64,000 nucleotides of DNA from the IMG/VR virus record IMGVR_UViG_3300047160_008180, positions 769 to 64,768 of that record; one strand, 5' to 3'. Positions 16,801 to 57,634 of the stretch are shown here, one piece after another (positions within the stretch are counted from its first letter, which is position 1; the number at the start of each line of letters is the position of its first letter). Below the pieces are notes generated by a model. The model was given only the letters and a program-made list of their open reading frames with translations. It made no database searches and was not told the origin of the DNA. The translations under genes and the position numbers were made by a program. This stretch comes from a virus. Lineage: Duplodnaviria > Caudoviricetes.

Positions 16801-17035
16801 GGAAGGTGCGGCGGAGATCACGAAGGAGTATATCGAAGCTCGCAAGCGCATGGCGCAGACCAAGGCCCTTGTGGACCAGGACCGCGCCAAGGCGGCCGCA
16901 GCGCGGCGCAAGACCGCTACCTCGATGCGTCAGCAGGGTATGCCGCGGACTGCCGACCTGGTCGCAGCGCTACCTCTTGAACCGGATTCGGCTGCGCGCA
17001 AGTACTTCTCGCAAATGGCCCAGGGTATCGCGTAG
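7844..17035 (+). CDS. Giant polyvalent ejection protein (3063 aa): InPase-like, GGDEF, zincin-like and other domains
   Basis: GNYAKG...ENPKGSTRSG...HDYGY...DGDHVD (InPase-like); SGDEF domain; LWHEAVGHHGL; FYSPVE...GVKSDEL and EELQSDWHQ motifs. Confidence 0.85.
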   Translation: MADVNPLDALDEAPSAAPASALATAAAPSSNPLDALDDPSAQPNPLDRLGTPPASDHTATRMDEVTDQAQMPTVTVSARGGPDSSWSDVARGIPTAIGAGIETKVGATQEYVGHSAYDDAKKKFWQSVTLPQAVRDAKAQGVALTDLPEVQDAAKHVGVRVDVFTRDWPDYVNMSPQELDQVQREQRDRMQAGAQQIESGSRKRLTAAQVQEAYAPRMDNHSLKALVFDSATMAPDILAGVGGTVATGGVGGAAIMAADIAPNEYAAARNKGLNHQDASTYAILTTVASSVPEVPVLKVVENTPLANKVIGSVVGEKLAQTGVGKVAGTAAAQGVTQSVVNALQQGIDAGVLNEHLPLDEALKQVAWSGLLGATVGAPMGAYHAATSRSRKPTTLQEITETGGGNGREEPQAPSVAPPSVGEVPTPIDTRGEEIRTGAAENISGSAEAEQRAALLAVQDKTVTPPQADLLEQAGLVKRNDLNEPVLLPAGRRRLTELKDTGDLPEGQAENAAGKVSAESEPPVSGTNTASKPLETREKGPIVGTETPQETPKQPETEAKQPEKSVNEEVATEKAPLLDRLRDDQDLRQGLEAMKGETGWAQVGGKVLRDATTDQVTGRTSWIPNSDWWPGRPKGLKEDEVHTAVDKALAGQPLRKREQSMVEYMTQVHDERVAMAATHEELKQAVPDLEEQPQQAVDLTILASRAAEHDPNATAQLMEDAWADDSPETIARVRGQFEQIIGRGQKEAFTLATQEAGNREPAPVKRSPAALDLFGEDRTREQALADETRRRDQLRSPNRDVPLETGLPGDLFSQSRRQVDLTDQLEAARADTNTDPTEAQKAAGNYAKGELSFGGMKVTLENPKGSTRSGVDPGGKRWSRKLAHDYGYLNGSEGADGDHVDTFLTGKPDTGKVFVVNQVHPDTREFDEHKAVLGANSEEEARRTYLANYPRGWKGLNSVAEFSTDGFRRWLNRGQRRRPAWGSEVERENQLDAAAHEFDAQTHEEIGSEPMSSQEIAEGFEHWAKQSAIDPRALAGKVAERLRTSENPAVRGAADLIAQKHERRVEIARRKKVAEMSAEEAKRELLTHELTGIPNRRAYVESEKLPRQVSIDVDSLKAINDIAGHEAGDALLKEVAQVLHEETDHAYHLSGDEFAAQALHDREAHELMERVRDRLKDSEIIVQMPDGSMANYKGLGISYGVGEDLGKADAALQSHKQEREAQGLRAPRGETPRGLAIRRPEGGGQSDRSEARSEKTSISGTETARDRTAAATELFGDRANADAIIDHGLNSLDIERQREVVAQVRASLQNFKIARAVIKSVPISVVHMLTGSKVTSDELARDPTMFSHSLAVATDGSIPGNVRGFIDTIAKAVRAVERSGTPAIAEEAARPKSRRTSVEGRATVAAGDYLHGKTVGLPRASVERIVHQTVREANLVAGFPHVEVHDDVSSLPQPIKRLIEEQGAQSLTGAVYDPNTGRIHLVASNNATEAEVRENLWHEAVGHHGLRMVMEGPQYNVVMDGIARDMPERVQAAAIRSGLDVRDPAQKRAAAEEVIAYAAGQHLSGQPIDKPVVPYWTRAVRAVKAFFARMTGRPFYDDTAIAKLIGQARQALERGTAGTLLGEPARATRAPMFYSPVERAVTESKQGKASAGQWLATLRKTTGVKSDELEWLNLEPWLKEHKGPITKEELADYVRANKLQLEETLHGAGAQTADEREQIRLAELLRAEGHTVAFDNDGNLDFISVPRQEEGYTVPTYDTYSLRDPAQIEELPESIRERVRDLDDVSTHVAARWAAEHEDPTASEDRGAKYGEYTLPGGKNYREMLVRMGNHYDPAQLAHRKTAFEKYASGIERYRQQSEDFSLPLDERQRAQRNLMKLQDIRDAEADKLGPERPTYRSSHWDEPNILAHVRFNERTDPDGKKVLFLEELQSDWHQQGRQHGYPGSPEEIEAAKQKRDAAGLLHSEAGERAAETFRAEYAGSPEEAVAIRRRLPETQKALTEAQRAYDQAKGAVPHAPFKTSWPMLIMKRMVRWAAENGFERIAWTTGKQNAERYSLENRVGEITYQRRGNLYNVAVDSPEGVRIWSSQHSDKETLARYVGQEMADKIERGERTETNGPFNVISGLDLRTGGEGMRGFYDQILPRETDKLIKKYGAKTGPVEVSVGGGPSANMQDDIATGFRPASATAHGFDITPAMKTAALGEGFPMFSRRQQELPLEEQRERGAYAVIRRAVNAVHDSAVARDFRKLANPVGMSPESKQTALVARAALGQLAHETVETQEALEHFSRQVDRMPVKDQLQMMDEIERGVPQSIPEYQPVADEMRKILDTWRGKVQGLGAGYLDNFIENYFPHYWRFPDEAQRMVASIMGRRPLRGPASFLKMRTIPSIKEGMDAGLTPLTTNPLIMTLLKTREMQRFVTGVTLMKRFKEDGLAQFLRAGSPMPDGWAPINDNIAKVRQWSEVENGFIERGQYIMPLEAARVINNHVSASALRDFAPAQIFRRGANALNAMQLGFSAFHLGFTTLDAMISKNAQGIERLMHGEVGKAAQSFGEGLTPVGAFTNVRRGYRLLQAYSDPAGATPEMQKLVRMLEQAGGRAHMDRYYQAAEGFSPFRGAGLRSLSNDVRQALTAPTDKLQNLGRALGSFPVEYGNKLMRGMQEIWATTPKMEVPVEVAMRIVRASTSWIMEHLVPMQKLGVFSDLATDHLRRNPLENPNERAAAMQKIWDSVDNRLGEMVYDNLFWNRTMKDSLHLGIRAVGWNVGTVREIGGAPIDIARAVDKLIRTGKITAQDLGHRIPYVLAMATTTALYGAMYQYMATGQGPQELKDYFFPRSGGVTNYGTPQRVSLPSYVKDVYEYAHRPGTTVVNKLNPIFSLMGNLYSNQDFFGNPITDPEAGYWQQKLQQLQFAGHEMTPFSFQGRQQMEATEQPTGFGAAVKKVLPMVGVTPAPGYITSGEQMERRQRLEADQKYVGELKYKIKKAALAGDKEGAAEITKEYIEARKRMAQTKALVDQDRAKAAAARRKTATSMRQQGMPRTADLVAALPLEPDSAARKYFSQMAQGIA
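11099..11500 (+). other. GGDEF (diguanylate cyclase-type) domain within the giant protein
   Basis: LTGIPNRRAY, SIDVDSLKAINDIAGHEAGDALL, YHLSGDEF, ISYGVG, ADAAL. Confidence 0.85.
11609..12073 (-). mobile_element. HNH homing endonuclease nested antisense within the giant gene
   Basis: CSNC...CNRRC zinc knuckle, EHRWIARQ...EHVHHGNGDGLDNSPRNLEVL...H HNH core, C-terminal HTH (SIRAIAKKLGCGRSTIARRL). Confidence 0.85.
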
Positions 17036-41969: not shown

Positions 41970-42166
41970 CTCTTTCGCAGCCGTTGCAATATGGGGCGCT
42001 CTGTTAAGGATCTCCGCCGCAGCCTGGCACCGGTCACCGGTCTCCCGACCGACGACACGGCCCTGCTGCGTACCGCAGGCCCTGCGGACGCGCCCCAGTC
42101 GATCGCTCAAACCGTCAAGGCTAAAACCCAGCAACTCCGCTCGGGTTACCCGAAAGGACCTACGCG

Positions 42167-42481
42167 ATGAACCCCATTCCGCCCCTGTACAAGCCCGGGA
42201 CCGCTGCGGCTCCGGCCGCCTCGACCACGAAAGCGGCCATTCCGCCGCATGTGAGCACCGCGCAGAATGCTGCCGCCAGCGCCGCGGCCCCTGCCAACAA
42301 ACCCGTGGTGACCACCGAAGGCGTCATGCAACGCCTGAAGTACTTCGAGAACCTCGCAGGCCAGTACGAGCACTACATCGGCACCCTCAAAGCGGCGTTG
42401 GGCCGCACGGGTCACGCGGTGCCGACGGCTTACTTCGCTTCGCTCACGGGCGAGGCGGGTAGCTACGTTCCGAACGCGTGA
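42167..42481 (+). CDS. Hypothetical protein
   Basis: 104 aa with AAGGA RBS. Confidence 0.55.
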   Translation: MNPIPPLYKPGTAAAPAASTTKAAIPPHVSTAQNAAASAAAPANKPVVTTEGVMQRLKYFENLAGQYEHYIGTLKAALGRTGHAVPTAYFASLTGEAGSYVPNA

Positions 42482-42680
42482 GCTAGAATCCAGCTCACAA
42501 CCACGTAGACACGGCGGACTGCAAGGAGCAACGCAGGGCAGGGAAGCCGTCTACGGCAACGCAAGATTCTTAGCGCAGCAAAAAAACCAAACGGGTGGGG
42601 TAGGAGAGGGGAACAATGGAGACCCCGCGTAAGGAAGCGAGCTCCGAGAGCATCCAATTAGGTTCGGGTGCGTCCAATGA

Positions 42681-42712
42681 GGGGGCTGCCGTTCTCCAGG
42701 ATGGCAGCCCCC
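42681..42712. other. Strong inverted repeat upstream of terL
   Basis: GGGGGCTGCC-N12-GGCAGCCCCC. Confidence 0.6.
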
Positions 42713-42755
42713 GCTAGTAAAAACAGCGCAGGCTTCGGTCGGCGCGTGGTACGAC

Positions 42756-45443
42756 ATGCAGGCTCACGAGCTCACCCCTTATCAGCGGGCGGAGCGCCAT
42801 TACACAGCGGTCACGGCTGAGACCTGCCGGCGCTCCCTGCGCAAATTCGTTAAGCGCGTCTGGTCGCTGATCGATCCCAAACCGTATGTAGAAGCTTGGC
42901 ACATCGATGCCATCGCCGACCATTTGGCCTATGTCGCCATCGGCGACATCATGAACCTGATGATCAACGTCCCGCCGCGCATGACAAAGAGCAGCGTGGT
43001 GTCGGTGGCCTTCCCGGCGTGGATGTGGACAGATCAGCCAGACCTGCAGTTCCTAGCCGCCAGCTACCAGAAGGACCTCGCCGAAGGCGATGCCATAAAG
43101 CACCGCCGCATAGTTGAGTCTGCCTGGTACCAAGCCCGGTACCCCGACGTAATCCTCCTGACCGACCAGAACCGGGTCGATGACTTCCGCAACACCAAAG
43201 GTGGGTATCGCCAGACGATCTCGGTAGGTGGTGTGACCACCGGCAAGGGTGGCGACATCCAGCTCTTTGATGACCCGCACAACGCGTTCACCGTTGAGTC
43301 GGACGCGGTGCGCAAGTCGACCATCAACTGGCATGACAATTCCTGGCGATCGCGCGTCAACGATCCCAACACAGCCCGCCGCGTGTACGTGGGCCAGCGC
43401 ACGCACGACGGCGACGTGTTCGGCCACGTGCTGGCCAAGGAGGAGAAACGTTGGGTACACCTCAACCTGCAGATGGAATTCGACGGCTCGAGGCGCTGCA
43501 TCACCTACCGCAACAAGGGTGAGGGTCCGATAGGGGAACCGATCTTCAAGGATCCGCGCACCCAGCCGAATAGCCTTCTGTGTCCCGCGCGCTTCAATGA
43601 GCAAACCGCGCAGCGCGAGAAGGAGGCCGTCAGTGAACGGACCTGGAATGCGCAGTACCAGCAGCAGCCCGAGGGCAAGGGCGGCGTGATCCTGAAGCGG
43701 AAGTGGTGGCGTAACTGGACTTGGCCGGAATGGCATCCCGAGTTCCGCAAGACCGAGCGACCGCTGCCTGAGATGCTGCAGGTGATTCAGGCCTACGACA
43801 CGGCGTTTGAGGAGAGCGAGCAGGACAGCTTCACGGTGCGCACGACCTGGGGCCTGTTCGAGCACTCCGACGTAGTACGCATGTCCAACGGCTCTACGCG
43901 GACCCTTCCGCCGCGGATGAACGCCATGCTCCTTGAGCGCCGCAAATGGCGTCCCAGCTTCGGCGAGCTCCGGGACGATGCCGTGGAGTCGGCCAAGCAG
44001 TTCAGTCCGGACCGCATCCTGGTGGAGAAAAAAAGTTCGGGACACTCTCTCGTGCAAGAGCTCCGTCGTAAAGACCTTCCGGTGCGAGCGGTCAAGATTC
44101 AAGGAGATCTGATCTACCGTGCGCACTTAGCTGCGCTGCCTCTTGAGAAGGGATCTATCTGGTACATCAGCCGAAATTGGTCCAAAGACCTGATAGAGGA
44201 ACTCGCGAAATTCCCGAATGTTGATTTTAATGATCAGGTAGCGAGTTGCTTTGCTGCTGGCACAAAAGTGATTTGCCTGGACGGTGTTCGCGAAATTCAG
44301 GAGATCCGACCCGGCGACCTGGTGCTAACCCACAAAGGGCGTTTTCGGCAGGTAGAGGCGGTCCGTGCCAAACAGGCGGATCACGTCTACAGATTAAAGG
44401 CGATGACATTAGATGAGGTGCAGGTAACCGGGGAGCATCTGGCGTGGAGCAGCGAGATATCGCCGTTGCGCAAGGGGCGGCCTGAGCGGTGGCGACGCGT
44501 GGACCAACTGCGCCCAATCAAGCGATATCGCAGCCGCCGAGGAAAGGCTGAGGTCGCTAGGACGGTCGTGGACGGCCTGACATTACCGTCGGCGAGCCCA
44601 GTACGTTTGCGTTCTATCGATACGAAGTCGTGGAGCGTCGGCCGGGGAGGTCGCGCGAACGGATTCCCGCGCGTGATCCGACTAACCTACGATTTCGGTT
44701 GGGTCCTTGGTTTTTGGATTGCGGAAGGCTCAATGAGCCGAACATCCGCAGTATTTTCGCAGCGCTTCGACAAATGGCAACTGCCAGCGCTGCGTCGCAG
44801 ACTCATGAAGTTGTTCGGAAAGATATGGAGTGAAAGCCGTACCAGAAATATTGTCAATGTGACACTTGGGGTCGCGAGTATCCTTCCGCTTTTCGAAATG
44901 ATGGGACGCGGGTGTACGAATAAAAAGATTCCTGATATTGCGTGGGGAGCACCTGCCGGTTTTCGTCGCGGACTCGTCGATGGGATTGTAGCTGGCGATG
45001 GACACGAGAATGAGGTGGACATCACTGTCAGCACCACTTCCTCTACCCTCGCTTATCAACTGAGACTTCTTTTGGCCAGCCTAGGGCAGCCTTGCACAAT
45101 TGGACGCCCCAAGCGACATCTGCGCAACACCGCATGGCAACCTATCTATGCGGTGCGGTGGTACAAAAATCCAGCGCGTCAGGCAGCAATTAAACGGCCG
45201 GAATCATGGGTCTATCCTGTGGAGAAGGCGCAGCGCGTCGACGGAGAGATTACTGTCTACGATATTCAGGTCGAGGAAGACCGCAGCTTTGTGACTACGG
45301 GAGGCACATTCCACAATTGCGTTATTGCCTGGATGTACATGAGGCGCTTCATGGACCTGCAGATTGAGGACGATGAGGACACCGAGGAACTCGAGCTCTT
45401 TAACCCTGCCATCATGAGGCCCACCATTGGTTACTACGGGTAG
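42756..45443 (+). CDS. terL: Terminase large subunit with intein
   Basis: INVPPRMTKS Walker A, LFDDPH Walker B, QAYDTAF and VEKKSSG nuclease motifs. Confidence 0.95.
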   Translation: MQAHELTPYQRAERHYTAVTAETCRRSLRKFVKRVWSLIDPKPYVEAWHIDAIADHLAYVAIGDIMNLMINVPPRMTKSSVVSVAFPAWMWTDQPDLQFLAASYQKDLAEGDAIKHRRIVESAWYQARYPDVILLTDQNRVDDFRNTKGGYRQTISVGGVTTGKGGDIQLFDDPHNAFTVESDAVRKSTINWHDNSWRSRVNDPNTARRVYVGQRTHDGDVFGHVLAKEEKRWVHLNLQMEFDGSRRCITYRNKGEGPIGEPIFKDPRTQPNSLLCPARFNEQTAQREKEAVSERTWNAQYQQQPEGKGGVILKRKWWRNWTWPEWHPEFRKTERPLPEMLQVIQAYDTAFEESEQDSFTVRTTWGLFEHSDVVRMSNGSTRTLPPRMNAMLLERRKWRPSFGELRDDAVESAKQFSPDRILVEKKSSGHSLVQELRRKDLPVRAVKIQGDLIYRAHLAALPLEKGSIWYISRNWSKDLIEELAKFPNVDFNDQVASCFAAGTKVICLDGVREIQEIRPGDLVLTHKGRFRQVEAVRAKQADHVYRLKAMTLDEVQVTGEHLAWSSEISPLRKGRPERWRRVDQLRPIKRYRSRRGKAEVARTVVDGLTLPSASPVRLRSIDTKSWSVGRGGRANGFPRVIRLTYDFGWVLGFWIAEGSMSRTSAVFSQRFDKWQLPALRRRLMKLFGKIWSESRTRNIVNVTLGVASILPLFEMMGRGCTNKKIPDIAWGAPAGFRRGLVDGIVAGDGHENEVDITVSTTSSTLAYQLRLLLASLGQPCTIGRPKRHLRNTAWQPIYAVRWYKNPARQAAIKRPESWVYPVEKAQRVDGEITVYDIQVEEDRSFVTTGGTFHNCVIAWMYMRRFMDLQIEDDEDTEELELFNPAIMRPTIGYYG
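44247..45317 (+). mobile_element. Intein (357 aa) with LAGLIDADG homing endonuclease
   Basis: CFAAGTKV N-terminus, GDLVLTH, LGFWIAEGS and LVDGIVAGDG, VYDIQVEEDRSF...HN followed by Cys(+1). Confidence 0.95.
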
Positions 45444-45726
45444 AAGCGGATACGACCTGACTCTGTTGGGAGATGCGCTCGCCGCGTTGGATAAGCTTGA
45501 TGAAGGCGGCGACTACTCACTCCTGAAGGAGGAAATACGCGCAGCGATAGATCCGTGGCGGGAGATCCAAGAAGGCTACGGCTGTTATCCACCCTACGTC
45601 GACAAGGATCCGGTGGCAGCCATGGCAGCAGCGAAAGAGCGAGGCCTGAAGCTCATCACCGAGTTTTGGGAGACTCGGAAGTATCCCCGCACACTTGAAC
45701 TGATCCACTACTGGGTAAAAGCATGA
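45427..45726 (+). CDS. Hypothetical protein
   Basis: 99 aa, start uncertain. Confidence 0.45.
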   Translation: MVTTGRSGYDLTLLGDALAALDKLDEGGDYSLLKEEIRAAIDPWREIQEGYGCYPPYVDKDPVAAMAAAKERGLKLITEFWETRKYPRTLELIHYWVKA

Positions 45727-45935
45727 AAATCGTTGGTTACAGCCTGCTCGAGTCGGACAATTACGAGGAGTTCGTGACGGAGGTCGCGCGTCTGTGCACG
45801 GAAGAAGGATGGTTTCCGAGCGGTGGCGTATGCATCTGGTTCGAGCCGCCGGGGCCTCGACAGCCCGACGATCCGGCCAACCCGATCAAGGGAACCACTC
45901 ACTACGCCCAGGCGCTGGTGCAGTATGGCCAATGA
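45723..45935 (+). CDS. DUF1737-like small protein
   Basis: YEEFVTEV...EEGWFPSGGV...YAQALV. Confidence 0.6.
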   Translation: MKIVGYSLLESDNYEEFVTEVARLCTEEGWFPSGGVCIWFEPPGPRQPDDPANPIKGTTHYAQALVQYGQ

Positions 45936-46404
45936 AGAAACCAGCCCGGATTCGTCCACCTCGAACCCCCTGTTAATGCAGGAGGTCCCGCAGACACTGG
46001 CCCAGTTGAGCGCCAAGGTCGAGGAACTCTTCCACTGCGTGAATGGGCCGCCGGTCGCCTACTTTGAGATCCCGCTGGATCCGCGGGAGCACGAACAATG
46101 CGGCCAGCAGTTCGAGCGGTACGTCTACGTGTCGCTTGCTTGGCGCACCGACCTGGCCCGGGACGGAGCGGAAGCGCGCCTGGTCATGGCAATGCTCGAG
46201 CCGTTTCTCGACGCCCGCCGGCAATTGTGCGGGGATAAGGGCAATGACGAGGTATTGAAGCCGCTGCTGTTCTGGCGCCGACCGCTCGAACTCACCCGCC
46301 TTGAGGAGGACGGACAGCTCAAACTACGGTGCCGAGTCATCATTCCCGGCACCACCCTGGCCGCCTACGAGCACAAGGAGGGCGAAGTCATCTTACACTT
46401 GTGA
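45925..46404 (+). CDS. Hypothetical protein
   Basis: ATG 45925, overlapping the previous gene. Confidence 0.55.
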   Translation: MANEETSPDSSTSNPLLMQEVPQTLAQLSAKVEELFHCVNGPPVAYFEIPLDPREHEQCGQQFERYVYVSLAWRTDLARDGAEARLVMAMLEPFLDARRQLCGDKGNDEVLKPLLFWRRPLELTRLEEDGQLKLRCRVIIPGTTLAAYEHKEGEVILHL

Positions 46405-46428
46405 CGCTCTGTTACACGCTGTTACCAT
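46399..46428 (+). promoter_or_regulatory. Conserved promoter/operator element, copy 2
   Basis: TTGTGACGCTCTGTTACACGCTGTTACCAT, with TACCAT as -10 and ATG 6 nt later. Confidence 0.65.
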
Positions 46429-46434
46429 GACGCC

Positions 46435-46776
46435 ATGGTGCAGTCCACGAACCACCGACTTGACCGCATTCTGCGCGAGGCCTCGATGAATACGCTGCCG
46501 ACTCCTGAACTCCCGAAGTACCTCTGCCACAAGGAGGTCCGTGCACTGAAAATCAAAGAGGTGCGCCGCGAGGGTGGCCAGTACTTGCTGCATTTCACCG
46601 AGGAAGGGTACCCACCCATCCGCGTTGAGACGGCCTGGGTCGACAAGTTCGGTCCCACCCGCGGCAGTTACTACGTCGTGTACAACGATGGGTATGCCAG
46701 CGTTAGCCCTGCGAAGGCGTTCGAGGAGGGCTACACCCGCGTGCAGGAGAAACTGCCGCACGGGACTTCCCTGTGA
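46435..46776 (+). CDS. Small conserved phage protein (YVVYxDGYxSxSPxxxFExGY family)
   Basis: LPKYLCHKEVRALKI...SYYVVYNDGYASVSPAKAFEEGYT. Confidence 0.7.
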   Translation: MVQSTNHRLDRILREASMNTLPTPELPKYLCHKEVRALKIKEVRREGGQYLLHFTEEGYPPIRVETAWVDKFGPTRGSYYVVYNDGYASVSPAKAFEEGYTRVQEKLPHGTSL

Positions 46777-47174
46777 ATCCGTTCAAGCGGTTGGTCCGTT
46801 GGGCGAGCGGGTGGGCGTGGGCGGAGGAGCTCGACGAGGGCGAGCATGCCATCGAGCACTTCACCTCAAACCGCCAGATCGCGGTTCTGAAGAGTCTGCA
46901 GCTCGGGCTCCTCGAGGATCTCTTCCGGGAGAAGCAGGGGAAGATCACGCGCCTGCAACAGTGCTACACCGAGAAAAAGCGCCCGCTGTACGAGGATTTA
47001 CGTAAGGAGAACCCTATCAAGGACGCTGAATCGCTGGCGCAGTCGATCAGCGCCCTGGCGCAGCGGGCTGAGGCGCACCGGGCGCGCACCGGTAAGCCGA
47101 TGCGCATCTCCGACGGCACCGTGCAGGGTGTGCCTGGTGATCAACCCAACGTGGAAACAGGGGACGGCTGGTGA
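46773..47174 (+). CDS. Hypothetical protein
   Basis: 133 aa, GTGA-coupled. Confidence 0.55.
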   Translation: MNPFKRLVRWASGWAWAEELDEGEHAIEHFTSNRQIAVLKSLQLGLLEDLFREKQGKITRLQQCYTEKKRPLYEDLRKENPIKDAESLAQSISALAQRAEAHRARTGKPMRISDGTVQGVPGDQPNVETGDGW

Positions 47175-47368
47175 ACTGGCAGCCCGGCGATCGCGTGGAG
47201 TGGGAGAGCACGAACAGCCGTTTCGTGTTCCGCGGCGTGATCGAGGGGTTTTACGGAGAAGGCCGCGCCATGTGCACCGACCAGTCTGGCCGCGGATCCC
47301 GCCCTGTGCGCACCACACGGCTGCGTCGGTCGACGGTCCCGCTTTGGCAAACTGGGAAGGTAGCGTAA
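47171..47368 (+). CDS. Small SH3/KOW-like protein
   Basis: WQPGDRVEW...FRGVIEG. Confidence 0.45.
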   Translation: MNWQPGDRVEWESTNSRFVFRGVIEGFYGEGRAMCTDQSGRGSRPVRTTRLRRSTVPLWQTGKVA

Positions 47369-47393
47369 TGCCTTGGTTCATGGCGGGTCACGC

Positions 47394-47804
47394 ATGATTC
47401 CAGGCGGCTACGGCTTCGAGGTGCTGCGATTCATGGATGAGGATATTCGCGACATCGTGCGCCTACCGAAGGATGTGCGCGTGGTGTGCGCACTCCCGCA
47501 CCTCGAGCACCGAGCAGGACCTGATTGCCCGCGGGAGTGGTACTCGCCCGGGCCGCGCGTACAACCGGTATATCTGCTCATATGTCACCGGTTCTGCGTG
47601 CGCGTGCCTCCAGGTGCTGCATACCAGTTCACGAACCTGGACGACTTCGTGAGCCGTTACTACTCCCTTGCGGAGGAGGAAAAACGCCCGCTAGAGCCGT
47701 GCGATGAGCACTACCAGCGTCCGCGAGAGGCTTGGCACTGTGGCGCCGACGGCGTGGCGCGTGAATACATTTGGCACCCCACCGGCGGCTGGGGACCAAA
47801 ATGA
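47394..47804 (+). CDS. Hypothetical protein
   Basis: ATG 47394. Confidence 0.5.
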   Translation: MIPGGYGFEVLRFMDEDIRDIVRLPKDVRVVCALPHLEHRAGPDCPREWYSPGPRVQPVYLLICHRFCVRVPPGAAYQFTNLDDFVSRYYSLAEEEKRPLEPCDEHYQRPREAWHCGADGVAREYIWHPTGGWGPK

Positions 47805-47946
47805 TTGAGGGTCGGCCGCAGAGATTGCTCCCGCCTGGTAGCCAGCGCAGGTTTCGGACACGGGTCGCCAAGCACCTGCCTTCGCCAGTGGTGCACGCAC
47901 CTCACGCGGGAACCCCTCTGCGCCCGACCCGCTTTAGGAGAACAGC

Positions 47947-48339
47947 ATGAACCGCCGCGGATTCATTTCACTGCTGGCCGGGAGTGCTGGGGCTGTATTG
48001 GTCCCCTGGCGCGGAGTGACGCAGCCGCTAATCTCGATCGCCAAGCCTGAGACGCTCATCGATCCCGGCCACTATCTCACCTCGAATACAGCCTGGTTCC
48101 TGAAGGTGCCGAACGGCGACTTCCGCACCGATAACCTGCGCTACATCCACCGGGAGCACTTCAGCAACCAGCTGCTCGCGCCGGCGGAGATGACGGAGCG
48201 CACCCTCGAGGGAATGCTGCGAGAGATTCAGAAGGAGATGAACCGCACCGGACGCCCGATTGCCATCCGTCCCACACACCTGATCGTGCACCCGTCCTGG
48301 ACGCCAGAGCTCGTGGAGGAAAGGTTGAAGCTGCTATGA
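47947..48339 (+). CDS. Twin-arginine-leader protein with capsid-like segments
   Basis: AGGAG RBS, MNRRGFISLLAG, HYLTSNTAWFLK, GRPIAIRPTHLIVHP. Confidence 0.75.
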   Translation: MNRRGFISLLAGSAGAVLVPWRGVTQPLISIAKPETLIDPGHYLTSNTAWFLKVPNGDFRTDNLRYIHREHFSNQLLAPAEMTERTLEGMLREIQKEMNRTGRPIAIRPTHLIVHPSWTPELVEERLKLL

Positions 48340-48689
48340 ACCGTCGAGACTTGTTCAAAACTCTGGCCGCGGTACCCGTTGCCGCCGCCGTGACCCCATT
48401 GGTGGTTGCCGATGATGGCGTAGCGCTCACCTCGGCTGCTCATCCGTGCGCCCCGGTGGCACCTGAAGATGTTCCGATCGCGTGCGAGTTGTCTCCAGGG
48501 AGCTTTGAGATCCTGCAGCTCGACCTGCCGGCGCACGAATGGGATATCTATAGCAACAGGTGCGTTCACTGCGGAGCGGCAGCGCAGTACGTCGAGGACA
48601 ACCTGCAGGCGCTCGTGTGCTGGGGGCACAAAGCCGCCAAACGCCTCCCGGCAGTGGGTGATTGGCTGTGGATCGATCCCTGGGTATGA
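48336..48689 (+). CDS. Second twin-arginine-leader protein with a capsid-like motif
   Basis: MNRRDLFKTLAAVPVAAAV, DDGVALTSAAHP, CVHC. Confidence 0.7.
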   Translation: MNRRDLFKTLAAVPVAAAVTPLVVADDGVALTSAAHPCAPVAPEDVPIACELSPGSFEILQLDLPAHEWDIYSNRCVHCGAAAQYVEDNLQALVCWGHKAAKRLPAVGDWLWIDPWV

Positions 48690-48961
48690 ACCACGAGACC
48701 CGCAAGCTCATCGAGCACTCGATGCGCAAATGCAAACCGGTCGAGCGCTGGGGCCCGTATTCCGTGGTCCCGCCGATCTACGACCGAGATGGCCGAATCA
48801 GCTACGTGCATGAGGTGTATCCGGTTGCGCGCGGGTGGATTCGCAACGATGATGGAACTACGCGGCCGGCAACGTCCGAGGAACTCGAGGTGATCAGCCG
48901 CTCCACCAGTGTGTATCTCACGAAGTCTTTCGAGGGACTGGCGGATTGGGAGGGTTGCTGA
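48686..48961 (+). CDS. Hypothetical protein
   Basis: ATGA-coupled ATG at 48686. Confidence 0.5.
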   Translation: MNHETRKLIEHSMRKCKPVERWGPYSVVPPIYDRDGRISYVHEVYPVARGWIRNDDGTTRPATSEELEVISRSTSVYLTKSFEGLADWEGC

Positions 48962-49155
48962 TGGACACCAAAGAGCTAGAACGGGCCCGTGAACTCATCG
49001 AGAGCCTGCAGCAGGATGTCAAAGACGGCGTCTATTTCGAGATCGACTCAACCGATGGCGCAATACTCGCCCGGTACATCCATGAACTCGAAACTTCCCT
49101 GCTGCGTCACGCTCGCTACCAGCCAGATGTGATGGCGCTCATGCCTGCCATGTAA
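48961..49155 (+). CDS. Hypothetical protein
   Basis: GGAGG RBS, MDTKELERARELIESL. Confidence 0.5.
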   Translation: MDTKELERARELIESLQQDVKDGVYFEIDSTDGAILARYIHELETSLLRHARYQPDVMALMPAM

Positions 49156-49158
49156 AGC

Positions 49159-49395
49159 ATGCTTCTGCGCGCCCTCACAGAGAAATATTCGCGCCCCCAC
49201 ATACGGCGCTTACGCATGTTGGCGGGTGACGCTGCATGGTACGAATGCCGAGATCACGAGGGCCATCGAGGCGCCGGTAAAACCGTCGACCGCGCTTACG
49301 ACTCATGGGTAGTCGACGTGCAATTCCATCGATGTGCGCTTGGATTCTTCCCAGCCCCACTGCGACACCCGTCCACTATCTGGGCCGCTAAGTAG
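49159..49395 (+). CDS. Hypothetical protein
   Basis: 78 aa. Confidence 0.4.
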   Translation: MLLRALTEKYSRPHIRRLRMLAGDAAWYECRDHEGHRGAGKTVDRAYDSWVVDVQFHRCALGFFPAPLRHPSTIWAAK

Positions 49396-49492
49396 CGCAT
49401 CCGCCCACCGCCGACATAGAATCCGCCGCACACGTGGTCCGTCCTGGTGACCCGCCACACAAAACACCAAGGTCATTGGACCGAGGACACGT

Positions 49493-52177
49493 GTGGCATC
49501 CCGCGAAGTTATCGAGCTCCGACCACAGCACCCCGTCAAATTCACAGACGCTGGGGCTGAATTCACCCAGCACCCCGACGGCACCGAGATGGTCAGCCTG
49601 TTCGGGCCGGATGACGACAACCAGATCACTGGGATCCAGCACGACGCCTCGAACGCCTCCCAGTTCGGCAGCTCTGGCACGACATTCGCCGAGAACCTCG
49701 CCGAGTACATGTCGACGAGCCAGCGCAATTACCTCGCCCAACGCCTGACCGAGTACCACCGCGTCGACCTCGACTCCCGCAAGGACTGGGAGAACCTCAC
49801 CAAGAGCGCGCTTTCCCTGCTGGGCATCGAGAAGCTCGAGATGTCCCGCCTCCCGTTCCCAGGGGCGGCGTCTATGCAGTACCCGGTCATCGCCGAGGCC
49901 TGCGTCCAGTTCAACTCGAACGCCATCCAGGAATTCTTCCCGCCCACCGGCCCGGTGAAGGGCGACCCCCTGGGCGATGTCACCGAGGACATCGAAGACA
50001 GCGCCGAGCGTGCGGCGCAGTACATGAACTATTACCTGACGGTCGTGGACACCGGCTACTACGCCGATAAAGACCAAGCGCTGTTCTACCTCCCGACCGC
50101 CGGGAGCCTGTTCAGCAAGACCTGGCTGGACCCCCGCGACCAGATGCCCAGAGCCCGCTACGTGAAGGCTGAGGACTTCGTAGCCCCATACTTTGCCCGC
50201 GACCTCGAAAACTGCTCTCGGTACTGCCACCAGTACCAGATGACCAAGTCCGAGATTGCGAAGGGCATGGCCCTGGGTGAGTTCATCGAGGTGAACCTGC
50301 CACGGCCGCCCCTGAACGCCGAGGACGAGCACTACCGCGGCCAGAAAATCGACGACATCTCCGACCGTCGTGTGCGTTCGCTGCACGATGAGGACGAATT
50401 GTTCGACGTTCTCGAGTACCACATCGACCTGAACCTGCCGCAGGGTGTCGATGAGCTCGATGAAGGGGGCCTCGAGCTCCCGTACATCGTGATCTGTGAC
50501 AAGACCAGCCAGGAGATCCTGGCGGTGCGCCGCAACTGGCGGCAGACGGACCCGTTGCGCAAGAAGCGCGTGTGGTTCGCGCACTACAAGTTCCTGCCAG
50601 GGTTGGGCTTTTACGGCTGGGGCTTCCTGCACGTCATCGGCTCGCTCGCTGAAGCGATTGGCGGAAGCGCCCGGGCCCTTCTGGATAGCGCGCTCATGGC
50701 GACCGTCCAGGGGGGATTCCGCGCAAAGGACGGTGCGAAGAAGGGCGGCAGCCTGGCCGTGCAGCCCGGCAAGTGGATTGATATCGACGCCTCCGCCGAG
50801 GAACTGGCGAAGACCTTCTACACGCCCCCGAACCGTGAACCGTCTCCGGCCCTGGTGCAGTTGTTCCAGGCGATGGTTTCGGATGCGCGACGGTTTGCCT
50901 CGCTCACCGAGGTATTGGTCGGGCAAGCGGACAATAAGGCCCCGGTCGGCACCACCCTGGCGCTGATCGAACAGTCGATGAAGCTTTTCACCGCGGTGCA
51001 TAAGCGCATCTTCGCGGCGGCGCGCGAAGAGTTCCGCATGCTGCGCGAGCTCATTCACGACTTCAGCCCGAATGCGGCCTACCCGTACCACCTCGACGGA
51101 CGGGCGCAGCAGGCGATGAAGGCCGACTTTGCCGACCACGTCTCGTTTGTCCCGGTGGCGGATCCGAACATCATCTCGGACGTGCAGCGCATTGCCATGG
51201 CGCAGGCCGTCCTGGAACTCGTGGAGAAGGCGCCGCAACTGTACGGGCCCGAGAAGACCATCGAGGCGCACGTGCGCTTCCTGAAGGCGCTCAAGGTCCC
51301 GGACTGGCAGAAACTGGCGCCGAGCATGCCGCAGCCGACCTACATGGACCCGGTGGGCGAGAACATGCTCATGATGACCGGCAAGGCGGTTCGAGCTTTC
51401 CCAGGGCAGCGGCACGATCTGCACAACCTGCTCCACGACCGTCAGGACCAGATTGCGCAGAACACGCTGCCTCCGGACCAGTACCAGGTGGTGCACTCCG
51501 CGCTCATGGCGCACATCCGCGAGCACCTGGCGCTCCAGCAGTTCGAGCAGGTCTCTGCCGGCATGAAGACCAGCCACGGCATCCCGCTGCCGCCCACGGA
51601 CCTGTACGGCGACAACCAGCCAATGGATCCGAAGGTCGAGATGGCCGTGAGCATCCTGGCCGCGCAGAACCTGCCGCCGGTACCGCCGCCGGTTCCTGGT
51701 TCGCAGGCATCTACGCAGGCCGGTGGGCCGCCGTCGGGTCAGGCACCTCCGCAGGTCGAAGCGCAGGCCCAGATTGCCGCCGACCAGGCGAAGACCGCGG
51801 CCGGCATCAAGAACAAGGAAGCGGAAACGCAGGCGCGGATACAGCGCGACACCCACACATTCGTCGCGAAGCACAAGCAGAAGGAGCTCGAGCACGAGCA
51901 GCGGCTGCGTCAGATCGAGGAAGAGCACCGCGTCCGCATGCGCCAGATCGACGAGGAGACCTCGGCGAGCATCCTGCGCAAGCACGCCGACGGCTTGGTG
52001 CAGCACCGCCACAAGCAGGCAGCCCACACCCAGTCGATGCTGCAGGCGGTAGACACCCACCGGCAGGGCTTGAAGCATTCCCGTGCTGAAGCGCAGGAGT
52101 CGCTGCTGGCCAAGAAGACAGCCCGGCGCACGATGGCGAAACAGGCGGCGAAGCGGCCGCTGAAGAAGGCGGCGTGA
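49493..52177 (+). CDS. Portal protein
   Basis: FAENLAEYM...DLDSRKDWE...LLG...PFPGA...YPVIAEACVQFNSNAIQEFFPPTGPVK, YKFLPGLGFYGWG. Follows terL. Confidence 0.88.
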   Translation: MASREVIELRPQHPVKFTDAGAEFTQHPDGTEMVSLFGPDDDNQITGIQHDASNASQFGSSGTTFAENLAEYMSTSQRNYLAQRLTEYHRVDLDSRKDWENLTKSALSLLGIEKLEMSRLPFPGAASMQYPVIAEACVQFNSNAIQEFFPPTGPVKGDPLGDVTEDIEDSAERAAQYMNYYLTVVDTGYYADKDQALFYLPTAGSLFSKTWLDPRDQMPRARYVKAEDFVAPYFARDLENCSRYCHQYQMTKSEIAKGMALGEFIEVNLPRPPLNAEDEHYRGQKIDDISDRRVRSLHDEDELFDVLEYHIDLNLPQGVDELDEGGLELPYIVICDKTSQEILAVRRNWRQTDPLRKKRVWFAHYKFLPGLGFYGWGFLHVIGSLAEAIGGSARALLDSALMATVQGGFRAKDGAKKGGSLAVQPGKWIDIDASAEELAKTFYTPPNREPSPALVQLFQAMVSDARRFASLTEVLVGQADNKAPVGTTLALIEQSMKLFTAVHKRIFAAAREEFRMLRELIHDFSPNAAYPYHLDGRAQQAMKADFADHVSFVPVADPNIISDVQRIAMAQAVLELVEKAPQLYGPEKTIEAHVRFLKALKVPDWQKLAPSMPQPTYMDPVGENMLMMTGKAVRAFPGQRHDLHNLLHDRQDQIAQNTLPPDQYQVVHSALMAHIREHLALQQFEQVSAGMKTSHGIPLPPTDLYGDNQPMDPKVEMAVSILAAQNLPPVPPPVPGSQASTQAGGPPSGQAPPQVEAQAQIAADQAKTAAGIKNKEAETQARIQRDTHTFVAKHKQKELEHEQRLRQIEEEHRVRMRQIDEETSASILRKHADGLVQHRHKQAAHTQSMLQAVDTHRQGLKHSRAEAQESLLAKKTARRTMAKQAAKRPLKKAA

Positions 52178-52431
52178 CCAATCCGGCACGAGGAATGATT
52201 TTCGCAGCCGCCACACAAGCGGCGGCGGACTCGTTATGGACCGACCTTGAGGATAACGACAGGTACGTGGTTTACGCGGTCCATGTCTATCGCAATGGCA
52301 GGCCTGCGCCTTCGCCGGTGTGCTGGTTGGTGCTGCCGGAGAATATGCAACCGAGGGTGACCGAACTTCGGGGCGGTACCGGAGACGGCGATGTCAATCC
52401 ACTCGCGCCTGCGATCACGAGGATACCGTGA
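52174..52431 (+). CDS. Hypothetical protein
   Basis: GTGA-coupled. Confidence 0.45.
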   Translation: MTNPARGMIFAAATQAAADSLWTDLEDNDRYVVYAVHVYRNGRPAPSPVCWLVLPENMQPRVTELRGGTGDGDVNPLAPAITRIP

Positions 52432-52655
52432 AGCACAAAGCCACGCCCCAACAGGCGCGCTCGTATCTGTTCCAGCGCCATCCGAACGGCTTCGGCATCT
52501 CGCCGGCCAAGTTCGCCGCAGCCGCCAACGAGCAGGGCACCAGTTTCGACCACCTCATCCAGTTCATCTCGAGGCTGTATGCGGGCGGGTCGCAGCAGTC
52601 CACGTTCCGCGGCGAGGACATCTCTGCCGCCGCGGCCGGCGGAGGTGGCCAGTGA
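52428..52655 (+). CDS. Hypothetical protein
   Basis: GAGGA RBS plus GTG, MKHKATPQQARSYLF. Confidence 0.5.
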   Translation: MKHKATPQQARSYLFQRHPNGFGISPAKFAAAANEQGTSFDHLIQFISRLYAGGSQQSTFRGEDISAAAAGGGGQ

Positions 52656-52861
52656 GTAAAGGACCGACCGAGACATGGGTTCAGCACGGGGAGACGCCGA
52701 AGGCGATTGCAGACTTCGAGCGCCATGACGCGCTTATCCGTCAGGGCATGTGTCCGAACGGCTGCGGGCTACTCACTGAGATGGGTAGCGCTGAATTCAT
52801 CCAGAGCTGCGGCACCTGCGGCTTTTTCACCAACGTTAAACCCGAGGTAACCAGGCAATGA
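52652..52861 (+). CDS. Small zinc-ribbon protein
   Basis: GGAGG RBS, CPNGCG...CGTCG. Confidence 0.5.
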   Translation: MSKGPTETWVQHGETPKAIADFERHDALIRQGMCPNGCGLLTEMGSAEFIQSCGTCGFFTNVKPEVTRQ

Positions 52862-53268
52862 CGCGAGCGAACACCGAGCGGCCGCACACCAGCGGGCGCA
52901 CCTCTCATCCCAAGGCCGGCGGCGAGCACAGCGATGCGCTCGAGCACGGCATGCCCACCGACCGGCATAGCGCTGGCGCAGGCACCGCGAATGCGGGCAC
53001 TGGCGTGAAGCCGTCCTCGAGCCCGAATCACCTCGAGCACGCGGACTACCCGGAGCCTGGTGAGCAGACCGCCGGCGGCGGTGGCCACAATCACCGGATC
53101 CTGCCCACACCCTCGAAAGAGGCGGCGGGCCCGATCGGTGACCGCAGTGTCGGCAATGCGAGCGGTGTCATCGGTGGCGGCCGCGGCTCGAGCGGCAAGT
53201 TCCGCGGGACCATGGGCGACGGCGCAGGCCCGGGCGAGCCGAAGTACAAGGGCACCATGGGCTGCTGA
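52858..53268 (+). CDS. His/Gly-rich disordered protein
   Basis: 136 aa, low complexity. Confidence 0.55.
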   Translation: MTRANTERPHTSGRTSHPKAGGEHSDALEHGMPTDRHSAGAGTANAGTGVKPSSSPNHLEHADYPEPGEQTAGGGGHNHRILPTPSKEAAGPIGDRSVGNASGVIGGGRGSSGKFRGTMGDGAGPGEPKYKGTMGC

Positions 53269-56731: not shown

Positions 56732-57634
56732 ATGATGAATCGCAGCGACTTCCGTCGGCAGCTTCAGGAAGGCCTGAACGCTGTCTTCGGAATGGAATAC
56801 GACCGCTACCCGGAAGAGTGGCGCGACATTTTCGACGTGGAAACGTCACAGAAGGCGTACGAGGAGGACGTGTTGATGTACGGCCTCGGGGCCGCCCAGG
56901 TGAAGGACGAAGGTGACGCGGTGGCGTACGACGAGGGTGCGGAAAGCTACACCGCTCGTTACAACCACCAGACCATCGCTCTGGCCTTTGCCATCACCGA
57001 GGAGGCGGAGGAGGACGGCCTGTACGGCTCCATCGGGCAGAAGATGAGCCGCGGTCTGTCGCGCTCGTTCCTGCAGACCAAGGAGGTCACTGGCGCGAAC
57101 ATCCTCAATAACGGCCAGTCCTCGAGCTTCCCGGGCGGTGACGGTGTGGCGCTGTTCAGCACGGCTCACCCGCTGGCGAACGGTTCGGTGCTCTCGAACA
57201 CCCTAGCCACACCCGCCGACCTGGCGGAGGCTGCCATGGAGGCGCTGCTGGTGCAGATCAGCGCTTGGACGGACGAGCGCGGAATCCCGATCAAGCCAGA
57301 CGTGGCCCGACTCATCATCCCGACGCAGTTGCAGTTCATTGCGACCCGTCTCTTGATGACGCCGTACCAGCCGGACACCGGCGACAACAACATCAACGCC
57401 ATCTTCAAGCTGGGTTCGATCCGAGACGGATTCTCGGTCAACCACCGCTTGACGGACCCCCGCAACTGGTTCTTCAAGACGAATGTCCCCGATGGCCTGA
57501 AGCACTTCGTGCGTAAGGCGATCAGCGGCGGCGTCGAGGGAGACTTCGAGACCGGCAACATGCGCTACAAGAAGCGCGAGCGGTACTCGTTCGGGTGGAC
57601 CGACTGGCGCGGGGCTGCCTCGGGAGGACCCTAG
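56732..57634 (+). CDS. Major capsid protein (HK97 fold, Mu gpT-like)
   Basis: LQEGLNAVFGMEY, YDEGAE..TARY.HQTIAL.FAITEEAEED, GDGVALFSTAHP, RERYSFGWTDWRG. Confidence 0.9.
   Translation: MMNRSDFRRQLQEGLNAVFGMEYDRYPEEWRDIFDVETSQKAYEEDVLMYGLGAAQVKDEGDAVAYDEGAESYTARYNHQTIALAFAITEEAEEDGLYGSIGQKMSRGLSRSFLQTKEVTGANILNNGQSSSFPGGDGVALFSTAHPLANGSVLSNTLATPADLAEAAMEALLVQISAWTDERGIPIKPDVARLIIPTQLQFIATRLLMTPYQPDTGDNNINAIFKLGSIRDGFSVNHRLTDPRNWFFKTNVPDGLKHFVRKAISGGVEGDFETGNMRYKKRERYSFGWTDWRGAASGGP

Follow-up and report, generated by a model that had tools for sequence, protein, structure and literature searches.

The described systems closest to ORF1 and ORF2, two small adjoining open reading frames (ORFs) in a 64,000-nucleotide stretch of Caudoviricetes DNA (hereafter the window, which covers nearly all of the 64.8-kilobase (kb) virus record IMGVR_UViG_3300047160_008180), are the signal peptides of the twin-arginine translocation (Tat) pathway and the HK97-fold capsid proteins. 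Tat signal peptides share with ORF1 and ORF2 the polar-R-R-x-F-[I/L] motif at residues 2-7, the Gly/Ala-rich stretch, the Pro and the basic residue of the c-region, and their A-x-A-type cleavage site is likewise present in ORF2 and its relatives. However, ordinary Tat signal peptides are less conserved than the leader described here, of which about 35 residues, including P-W-R-G and I-x-L-P-P, are near-invariant, and Tat passengers are cofactor enzymes, whereas the present proteins are small and not predicted to fold. The part that follows the leader (hereafter the body) is homologous to segments of HK97-fold capsids (PF25209, the Mu gpT-like PF10124, phrog_371 and phrog_9953); these have a complete fold, whereas here we find pieces of 12-60 residues in permuted or shuffled order, with regions deleted, in proteins of 35-172 amino acids (aa) in total. 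By sequence, the bodies are derivatives of capsid proteins and not capsid proteins themselves.

Other known systems share single traits with this locus. Phage exclusion and envelope proteins such as T4 Imm and Sp, T5 Llp, HK97 gp15 and TP-J34 Ltp are likewise small, predicted to be membrane or periplasmic proteins, encoded in variable regions and patchy in distribution, but they have no sequence relation to ORF1 or ORF2. None of the exclusion proteins known to us consists of capsid pieces or bears a Tat leader, and a literature search combining superinfection exclusion, twin-arginine and phage-encoded proteins found none. By analogy, the precursors of ribosomally synthesised and post-translationally modified peptides and of conotoxins show the same combination of a constrained N-terminal leader with a fast-diversifying C-terminal part; unlike in these, no modifying enzyme or dedicated transporter adjoins ORF1 and ORF2, and the bodies, of about 60-130 residues, come from a structural protein. 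Finally, the use of capsid-related or capsid-binding proteins by one mobile element against another is described for the capsid homologues of phage-inducible chromosomal islands (PICI) and for TcaP of the PICI-like elements (PLE) (bioRxiv 10.1101/2022.09.08.507074, PMC10945586). These proteins are satellite-encoded and cytoplasmic, and are full-fold capsids or external scaffolds, whereas ORF1 and ORF2 are phage-encoded and fragmentary and carry an export-type leader.

ORF1 and ORF2 are real, translationally coupled genes, and homologues of ORF1 occupy the corresponding place in further phage contigs, 62-67 kb long. The parts of the two genes, and the capsid gene with which they were compared, are the following (HMM, hidden Markov model).

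47936-47940 (+): Shine-Dalgarno sequence AGGAG of ORF1, seven bases before the ATG, read from the sequence
47947-48339 (+): ORF1, 130 aa, a type-1 leader followed by a capsid-derived body
47947-48015 (+): ORF1 leader, residues 1-23, with N-R-R-G-F-I, an uncharged Gly/Ala-rich stretch and P-W-R-G (leader HMM, 64.7 bits)
48070-48165 (+): ORF1 residues 42-73, similar to capsid residues 238-286 with a 17-residue deletion (pairwise BLASTP, E 2e-5)
48163-48297 (+): ORF1 residues 73-117, similar to capsid residues 154-198 (hhalign, HMM and BLASTP)
48336-48689 (+): ORF2, 117 aa, its ATG overlapping the ORF1 stop codon (ATGA at 48336-48339)
48336-48410 (+): ORF2 leader, residues 1-25, with N-R-R-D-L-F-K and a hydrophobic stretch
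48411-48446 (+): ORF2 residues 26-37, D-D-G-V-A-L-T-S-A-A-H-P, similar to capsid residues 136-147 (9/12)
48525-48629 (+): Cys/His module of ORF2, residues 64-98, C-x-x-C-G ... V-E-D-N-L ... C-W-G-H
56732-57634 (+): major capsid protein gene, 300 aa (PF25209 Phage_capsid_4, E 9e-13; phrog_371)

The initial annotation had read three stretches of the two ORFs as pieces of the major capsid protein, and its counts proved exact: nine of 12 residues are identical between ORF2 and the capsid at 57137, with different synonymous codons, as claimed, at six of the nine, and ORF1 shares 6/12 and 12/43 residues with the capsid at 57443 and 57203, respectively. Pairwise BLASTP also confirmed, through two segments, that the pieces of ORF1 stand in the reverse of their capsid order, the second segment aligning residues 73-114 with capsid 155-196 (E 7e-5); ORF2 residues 27-39 aligned with capsid 137-149 (E 1e-3). 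Residues 42-73 of ORF1 match the capsids of other phages as well, and residues 73-117 are its best conserved and best modelled part. Leaving aside the capsid gene and the frame antisense to it, a tblastn search of the window in six frames with the capsid as query ranked highest 48070-48165 (capsid 238-286, E 0.015), 48163-48288 (capsid 155-196, E 0.028) and 48414-48533 (capsid 137-178, E 0.2). Each of these segments lies in the frame of ORF1 or ORF2, and together they fall within 470 bases.

The capsid-family HMM, applied to six-frame translations of 86 loci, reached E <0.02 outside capsid genes solely within leader-bearing ORFs. The profile comparison with capsid families proposed by the initial annotation was significant: hhalign aligned the ORF1 family with the capsid family at a probability of 97.6% (E 3.9e-12) and the ORF2 family at 71.5% (E 3.6e-5, 15 columns, capsid 134-148), a match that is short yet fits its context. 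In the reverse direction, the profile of the ORF1 subfamily recovers the capsid genes of four other phage genomes. ORF1 also shows weak matches to capsid profiles and, among unrelated cultured phages, to their capsid genes; Pfam PF10124 scores 13.3 bits over only 39 of its residues, below the cut-off of 20.1, and ORF2 has no Pfam capsid match. No collinear above-threshold match was obtained over the whole capsid domain (PF25209/PF10124); the segments are out of order and interrupted by deletions. Judged from these alignments, the similarity of ORF1 and ORF2 to the capsid is more than chance. As to its origin, a recent duplication of the window's own capsid gene was rejected on the 33-37% identity of the two ORF1 segments and their different codons, and capsid gene conversion via silent cassettes was rejected since there is no meaningful nucleotide similarity between the ORFs and the capsid gene.

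A word-indexed search with ORF1 returned eight homologues, and a profile search of 1.84 billion representative proteins (E <1e-3) returned at least 108 clusters at 50% identity, all but one of 35-172 aa; a 2050-aa protein near the E-value limit was left out of the family analysis. The search for genes with a twin-arginine leader and capsid fragments in other phages, also suggested at the outset, has thus uncovered a large family. Its type-1 leader is near-invariant over about 35 residues (M-N-R-R-G-F-I-S-L-L-A-G-A-A-G-A-P-L-V-P-W-R-G, then I-x-L-P-P), and the bodies are unrecognisably different between clusters. A second leader type (...V-V-P-E-L...I-F-L-P-P-R-G-G-W-P) carries the same bodies, as in P0048, P0068 and P0099.

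To relate the bodies to the capsid, we used an HMM built from 70 distinct capsid sequences, which scored above 10 bits with 28 of 115 family proteins and above 20 bits with 15, with a maximum of 65.2; in the reversed-sequence control the score was at most -0.1 and none of the bodies matched. The matched pieces cover capsid residues 4-40, 51-70, 73-129, 134-206 and 232-293. In the usual order the C-terminal third of the capsid comes before the middle, with whole regions between them deleted, and the bodies retain precisely those capsid motifs that vary least, with local identity to real capsids of up to 60-72% over 18-29 residues. The majority of arrangements are compatible with circular permutation, such as would result if a tandem duplication of the capsid had subsequently been trimmed, while some need more than one wrap: the ORF of G006 runs through capsid 137-148, 55-69 and then the N-terminus. 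One further class of bodies resembles the PKD-like repeats encoded by a structural-module ORF in a related phage. All together, these sequence data make us highly confident of a capsid-derived family with a conserved leader, and the structural reading of the initial annotation, namely capsid-derived segments in non-native order behind Tat-type leaders, is supported by the tblastn, HMM and hhalign results and by the selection analysis given below.

Leaderless pieces were also seen. Two mini-ORFs (L084 2249-2551, P0018; L092 1763-1987, minus strand), located in the same islands of two different phages, join a capsid N-terminal helix motif (F-R-K-Q-L-Q-E-G-L-N-A-V-F-like) directly to a C-terminal motif (E-R-Y-x-x-G-W / W-S-D-W-R). 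A leaderless 104-aa ORF just upstream of P0096 (L088 9690-10004, plus strand) bears the capsid helix motif A-P-E-A-D-L-T-Q-E-S-L-E-R-T-L-E, so that the islands also hold capsid pieces without a leader.

The association of leader and capsid is found again in a second phage lineage. Some bodies match another capsid profile, phrog_9953, and the contigs that encode them (L099 and L100) belong to a different phage type, with a portal of phrog_12082 and a 327-330-aa capsid of phrog_9953 that has no BLASTP similarity to the window capsid. On both contigs the type-1 leader scores 67-68 bits with the leader HMM and the leader gene adjoins the portal gene. Here P0030 matches the capsid of its own phage with a 30-residue deletion (E 3e-12), and P0060 matches that of its own phage in two pieces of swapped order (E 2e-10 and E 1e-7). 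The pairing of the leader with pieces of the own capsid in this lineage therefore indicates that the link is not a single historical accident. The bodies seem to have been drawn repeatedly from virion proteins, that is, from two unrelated capsid families and from PKD-like repeats.

The N-termini had been described as Tat-like. For the family this holds, [N/K/T/S]-R-R-x-F-[I/L/V/F] occurring near the N-terminus in 106 of 114 members; for the two window proteins it holds in part, in that the motif (N-R-R-G-F-I-S in ORF1 and N-R-R-D-L-F-K in ORF2, both at residues 2-8) and the hydrophobic (h-) region are present, while neither protein reaches the thresholds of the curated Tat models. Averaged over 15 residues, Kyte-Doolittle hydrophobicity peaks at 1.98 in ORF1, in which P-W-R-G follows the h-region, and at 2.25 in ORF2. 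Among the relatives, TIGR01409 is passed by four (P0122 and P0099 with 20.1 bits each, P0017 with 18.4 and P0096 with 17.3); the leader of P0099 additionally gives a weak match to PF25471 (Rieske/PetC anchor) and one to NF045928 (E 0.002) that is far below the cut-off, while ORF1 itself does not match these anchor models.

Read from the sequence, an A-x-A cleavage site is absent right after the h-region of ORF1, and because of this missing signal-peptidase site the leader of ORF1, like the type-1 leader in general, is predicted to be an uncleaved, Rieske-like signal-anchor of Tat type. The leader of ORF2, instead, is probably cleaved between V-V-A and D-D, where the relatives P0122 and P0121 have A-I-A followed by D/E. 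The residue after R-R is G in 74 family members, N in 11, S in 7, A in 5, Q in 4, D in 2 and K in 1; the x position of R-R-x-F is thus variable, as in the Tat consensus, which rules out a prepilin-type signal. A type IV prepilin-like (class III) signal was rejected on this variation and on position +5, which is Leu or Met and not Glu. An origin of the leader from the capsid N-terminus (M-N-R-S-D-F versus M-N-R-R-G-F, 7/18 identical) or from capsid 46-60 was unsupported; alignments to the capsid HMM did not include a single leader, and the sole BLAST match had an E of 0.25.

The ORF1 leader is unchanged in nine homologues although the DNA differs synonymously. In three phage contigs the third codon positions of the leader vary freely, so that the constraint acts on the peptide, and a conserved DNA or RNA element underlying the leader was rejected on this ground. 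We consider Tat targeting reasonably probable on these sequence features, and membership of the Tat signal class likely for the family and less certain for ORF1. The near-invariance of about 35 residues, which sets the leader apart from ordinary signal peptides, suggests an additional specific contact. No locus in the GTDB representative genomes encodes the leader, hence no prophage copy was found there, while a scan of IMG/VR with the leader, using strict search patterns, gave six loci. On one contig, a type-1 leader gene is immediately preceded, with an overlap at its start, by a 159-aa ORF (L105 1167-1643, plus strand) that begins with M-N-R-R-S-F-I-V-L-G-S-L-L-A-A-C, an RR motif followed by a lipobox-like L-A-A-C; the product of this ORF is possibly a Tat-type lipoprotein and has no Pfam match.

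ORF2 alone retrieved no homologue, and its relatives (P0121, P0122, P0096, P0107 and P0123) appeared only once the family was known. P0121 is the ORF2 homologue in a phage with a 97% identical capsid, and P0122 carries D-D-G-V-A-L-Y-S-T-A-H-P, 10/12 identical to the capsid, directly after its A-I-A cleavage motif. In P0096, P0107 and P0123 an ORF2-type leader and the Cys module are fused to an ORF1-type body. The Cys/His module is common to P0096, P0107, P0121 and P0122 (ORF2 matches P0096 with a BLASTP E of 4e-7 and P0107 with 2e-6); it may bind metal, which would be in keeping with Tat export, a route for proteins already folded in the cytoplasm. We rejected a two-component spanin pair, given that ORF2 is without a lipobox, its first Cys being residue 38 in A-H-P-C; the fusion of ORF1 and ORF2 modules in one ORF of L088 also counts against such a pair. 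Eight of the neighbouring ORFs, though not two further small ones of the region, were compared with lysis families, and none gave a match. P0121 (L097 60-389, minus strand), which comes from a 68.6-kb relative, is labelled at NCBI as a hypothetical protein of a 'Nitrospiraceae bacterium' metagenome-assembled genome (MAG); the contig of this phage was probably binned with that MAG, which gives a weak hint only as to the host.

By comparing the window with related genomes, it appears that the two genes occupy a region of rapid turnover.

47794-48801 (+): hypervariable island with ORF1 and ORF2 (blastn of window 42000-53000 against the related contig L088)

The flanks of the island align to L088 by blastn at 71-80% (47382-47793, 48802-48855 and the portal from 49388), and within 47794-48801 there is no blastn alignment to this relative, whose capsid is 97% identical to that of the window. 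The same capsid identity applies to G001, and the portal of L098 is 85% identical; the mini-proteins of L088, L098 and G001 all differ from those of the window in architecture and sequence. Presence is patchy, with family members absent from two related genomes that are 87-92% complete, and tandem arrays of two to four members in other related genomes. Of the pairs for which DNA could be compared, ORF1 and P0048 are the closest. The nonsynonymous rate (dN) of the body is 0.27 in this pair and the synonymous rate (dS) 0.97, with a dN/dS ratio (omega) of 0.27, compared with 0.14 for the portal; between these two proteins the leader has been exchanged while the body was kept. Neutral decay, which would have spoken against the initial annotation, is therefore not what the bodies exhibit: they are under purifying selection and are not debris. 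From these comparisons, the bodies appear to turn over fast and to be dispensable for the core life cycle, which is the usual signature of conflict genes. Hypervariability amid 97% identical capsids makes a role that co-evolves with the assembly of the phage itself less plausible and one in conflict more so, and we put a conflict or accessory role, rather than one in core assembly, at somewhat better than even.

Structure prediction and database searches added little. AlphaFold2 modelled ORF1 with a mean predicted local distance difference test (pLDDT) score of 66 and no compact domain, residues 81-130 reaching 79-91, and P0099, the most capsid-like relative, with a mean pLDDT of 63 and no compact domain, the long helix alone being modelled with some confidence. 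In the ESM Atlas nothing usable was found for ORF1, and for ORF2 there were weak leads only (score <=0.83, a 'Tat signal' cluster, a zinc-ribbon-like structure at a template modelling (TM) score of 0.3). The capsid and family profiles found no solved relative among the PDB sequences. The cultured-phage database holds no homologue of ORF1 or ORF2, ORF1 giving weak matches to capsid genes only, and Pfam, PHROG and NCBIfam gave nothing informative beyond the capsid and Tat models. PADLOC, run on ORF1, ORF2 and eight relatives, gave no match except a chance-level one to Cas1 (E 0.013). No paper describing Tat-leader capsid-fragment genes was found, and the family is apparently undescribed in the literature and in the family libraries.

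The genes on either side of the small-ORF region belong to the packaging and head machinery.

42756-45443 (+): large terminase gene (phrog_38, E 2.9e-68), the upstream boundary of the small-ORF region
49493-52177 (+): portal gene, the downstream neighbour (phrog_1216, E 3.5e-11)

ORF1 and ORF2 sit in a series of small co-directional ORFs running from the terminase to the portal, and no promoter-like or terminator-like site was seen between them and the terminase and portal genes. The phage, of roughly 65 kb and represented by metagenome data only, is taken to be a podovirus because its capsid resembles those of HTVC023P-like phages; capsid identity reaches 39% with Caulobacter phages and 45-53% with phages of Roseobacter, Pelagibacter, Planktothrix and Alcaligenes. 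On its left, the island is bordered by a 143-aa ORF (47373-47804, plus strand) that has 71% nucleotide identity in L088, is apparently kept in L084 by eye and is without a family match; similar-sized ORFs occupy its place in L098 and in one JGI contig.

Further features of the window and its relatives were recorded in passing. The large terminase has 895 aa, against 543 in the relatives L088 and L098, and contains an intein whose Hint domain occupies residues 498-553 and whose LAGLIDADG homing-endonuclease domain occupies residues 738-794, the insert lying at roughly 44250-45317; the nucleotide alignment of the gene to L088 breaks exactly at the intein, and intein-bearing terminases also occur in the relative L001 and in an ENA contig. 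A 3063-aa ORF (7844-17035, plus strand) bears an inorganic-pyrophosphatase-like InPase domain at residues 837-971 (E 1e-49) and, at residues 1108-1219, a nucleotide cyclase domain of GGDEF type (E 2.6e-12), and looks like a giant polyvalent, possibly virion-packaged protein. Opposite the portal gene, a 942-aa antisense ORF (49388-52216, minus strand) is read as a high-GC shadow frame and not as a gene; the capsid antisense frame, too, gave a spurious tblastn match. Just downstream of the portal, related phages (L001 17993-18193, L003 17585-17785 and the ENA contig) have Acb2/Tad1-hairpin and Tad2-like anti-defence genes, together with a gene weakly resembling Cpn10 (GroES-like).

The best explanation of these data, which we hold tentatively and at less than even chances, is that ORF1 and ORF2 may be Tat-targeted mimics of the phage's own capsid with a conflict function at the envelope. 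According to this proposal, both would be functional accessory genes. They encode small proteins of leader and body and belong to a modular family in which a near-invariant leader is combined with fast-changing bodies. The bodies are short, diverged and out-of-order pieces of the phage's own capsid, to which ORF2 adds the Cys/His module. The Tat pathway of the host would carry the protein to the cytoplasmic membrane or the periplasm, and there or en route the capsid-like surface would bind something that normally recognises the capsid protein. One example of the outcome would be superinfection exclusion, by trapping those ejected proteins of incoming related virions that have evolved to sit against the capsid; in this specific form, envelope exclusion is rather unlikely, although we would still rank it first among the functional readings, ahead of a decoy, then a leader-centred effect and last a morphogenetic helper.

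Several points weigh against this proposal. ORF1 matches neither of the curated Tat models TIGR01409 and PF10518, and ORF2 stays below their thresholds (13.8 bits with a cut-off of 16.7, and 18.7 with a cut-off of 22.7, respectively). Tat passengers are mostly folded, whereas the models of ORF1 and P0099 are of low confidence. Tat export would also presuppose a Tat system in the host. The location of the two genes looks like a late packaging and structural operon, and classical exclusion genes are usually early. Moreover, a periplasmic capsid mimic would be without an obvious partner, as capsids stay outside the cell, and the trap for ejected proteins is our own suggestion, for which no precedent was found.

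A decoy against host defence, whose body would bind an immune sensor of invariant capsid motifs and whose leader would drag that sensor to TatBC at the membrane or export it as a hitchhiker, thereby clearing it from the cytoplasm, is in our view unlikely. Capsid proteins reportedly trigger bacterial immunity, as with CapRel, and the bodies keep precisely the least variable capsid motifs, the parts on which a sensor could rely. The mimicry of the own-phage capsid in two lineages, the hypervariability of the locus, the apparent co-expression of ORF1 and ORF2 with the structural genes and the presence of known anti-defence genes in the same region of related phages would all suit such a role. In the known capsid-sensing systems, however, the capsid peptide activates the sensor, so that a decoy could do harm, and no PADLOC or anti-defence family match was obtained for ORF1, ORF2 and the eight relatives. 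Tat hitchhiking as such is described in PMC10924467. An accessory of head morphogenesis, that is, a membrane-tethered or capsid-binding helper or regulator of procapsid assembly docking on capsid, scaffold or portal, is improbable: capsids that are 97% identical are accompanied by radically different versions, or by an ORF2-type gene only, the two related genomes of 87-92% completeness have no member, and the predicted topology would place the body outside the cytoplasm, away from head assembly. What such a helper would account for is the position of the gene by terminase and portal in two unrelated lineages, co-directional with the structural genes, and the resemblance of the bodies to the phage's own capsid family.

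The effect might also reside in the leader, which would jam or occupy the Tat receptor, or act as a holin- or antiholin-like element tuning envelope integrity or lysis timing, a topology comparable to that of T4 antiholin RI or a class III holin, with the body as mere filler from nearby phage DNA. Over more than 100 clusters the leader is indeed conserved to a far higher degree than the body, and the bodies are predicted to be largely unstructured. Against this, selection on the bodies is purifying, particular capsid motifs persist in them in each of the two independent lineages, the ORF1/P0048 body was kept while the leader was exchanged, and no endolysin or holin adjoins the genes. We hold this explanation to be about as improbable as a morphogenetic role. 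As for chance similarity or the functionless, decaying debris of an old capsid duplication, it retains hardly any probability and is refuted as far as sequence analysis goes. It is true that each window segment is weak alone (E 0.015-0.2 in the whole-window search) and that the fragments are old and diverged; nevertheless, the three best matches cluster in 470 bases in coding frames, the profile statistics are strong, the frames are intact at an omega of 0.27, the leader is invariant over more than 100 clusters, and the same arrangement recurs with a different capsid family.

In conclusion, if ORF1 and ORF2 are Tat-targeted capsid mimics, they may be instances of a mobile two-part cassette, a possibility that we put forward more tentatively still. 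In such a cassette a near-invariant Tat-type leader would move between unrelated lineages, in each of them repeatedly capture shuffled in-frame pieces of the resident phage's virion proteins, chiefly the least variable motifs of its major capsid protein, and yield exported or membrane-anchored self-capsid mimics. These would decide conflicts between phages or between phage and host, perhaps by trapping proteins ejected from superinfecting relatives, or by pulling host factors that recognise the capsid to the Tat translocon or across it. Capsid proteins rank among the principal triggers of bacterial immunity, and no part of a phage is less free to change; the export of a phage's own invariant capsid motifs would, if true, imply an interaction surface at the envelope or a Tat removal route that nobody has looked for. 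The family is large, has a simple signature that is easy to mine and evolves like arms-race genes. It offers an unusually clear natural case of gene birth, in which a structural gene was shuffled in frame, shortened by deletions and in part circularly permuted, independently in two capsid families. The cassette system, if confirmed, would constitute a kind of viral accessory gene not seen before and put the Tat pathway to a new use.

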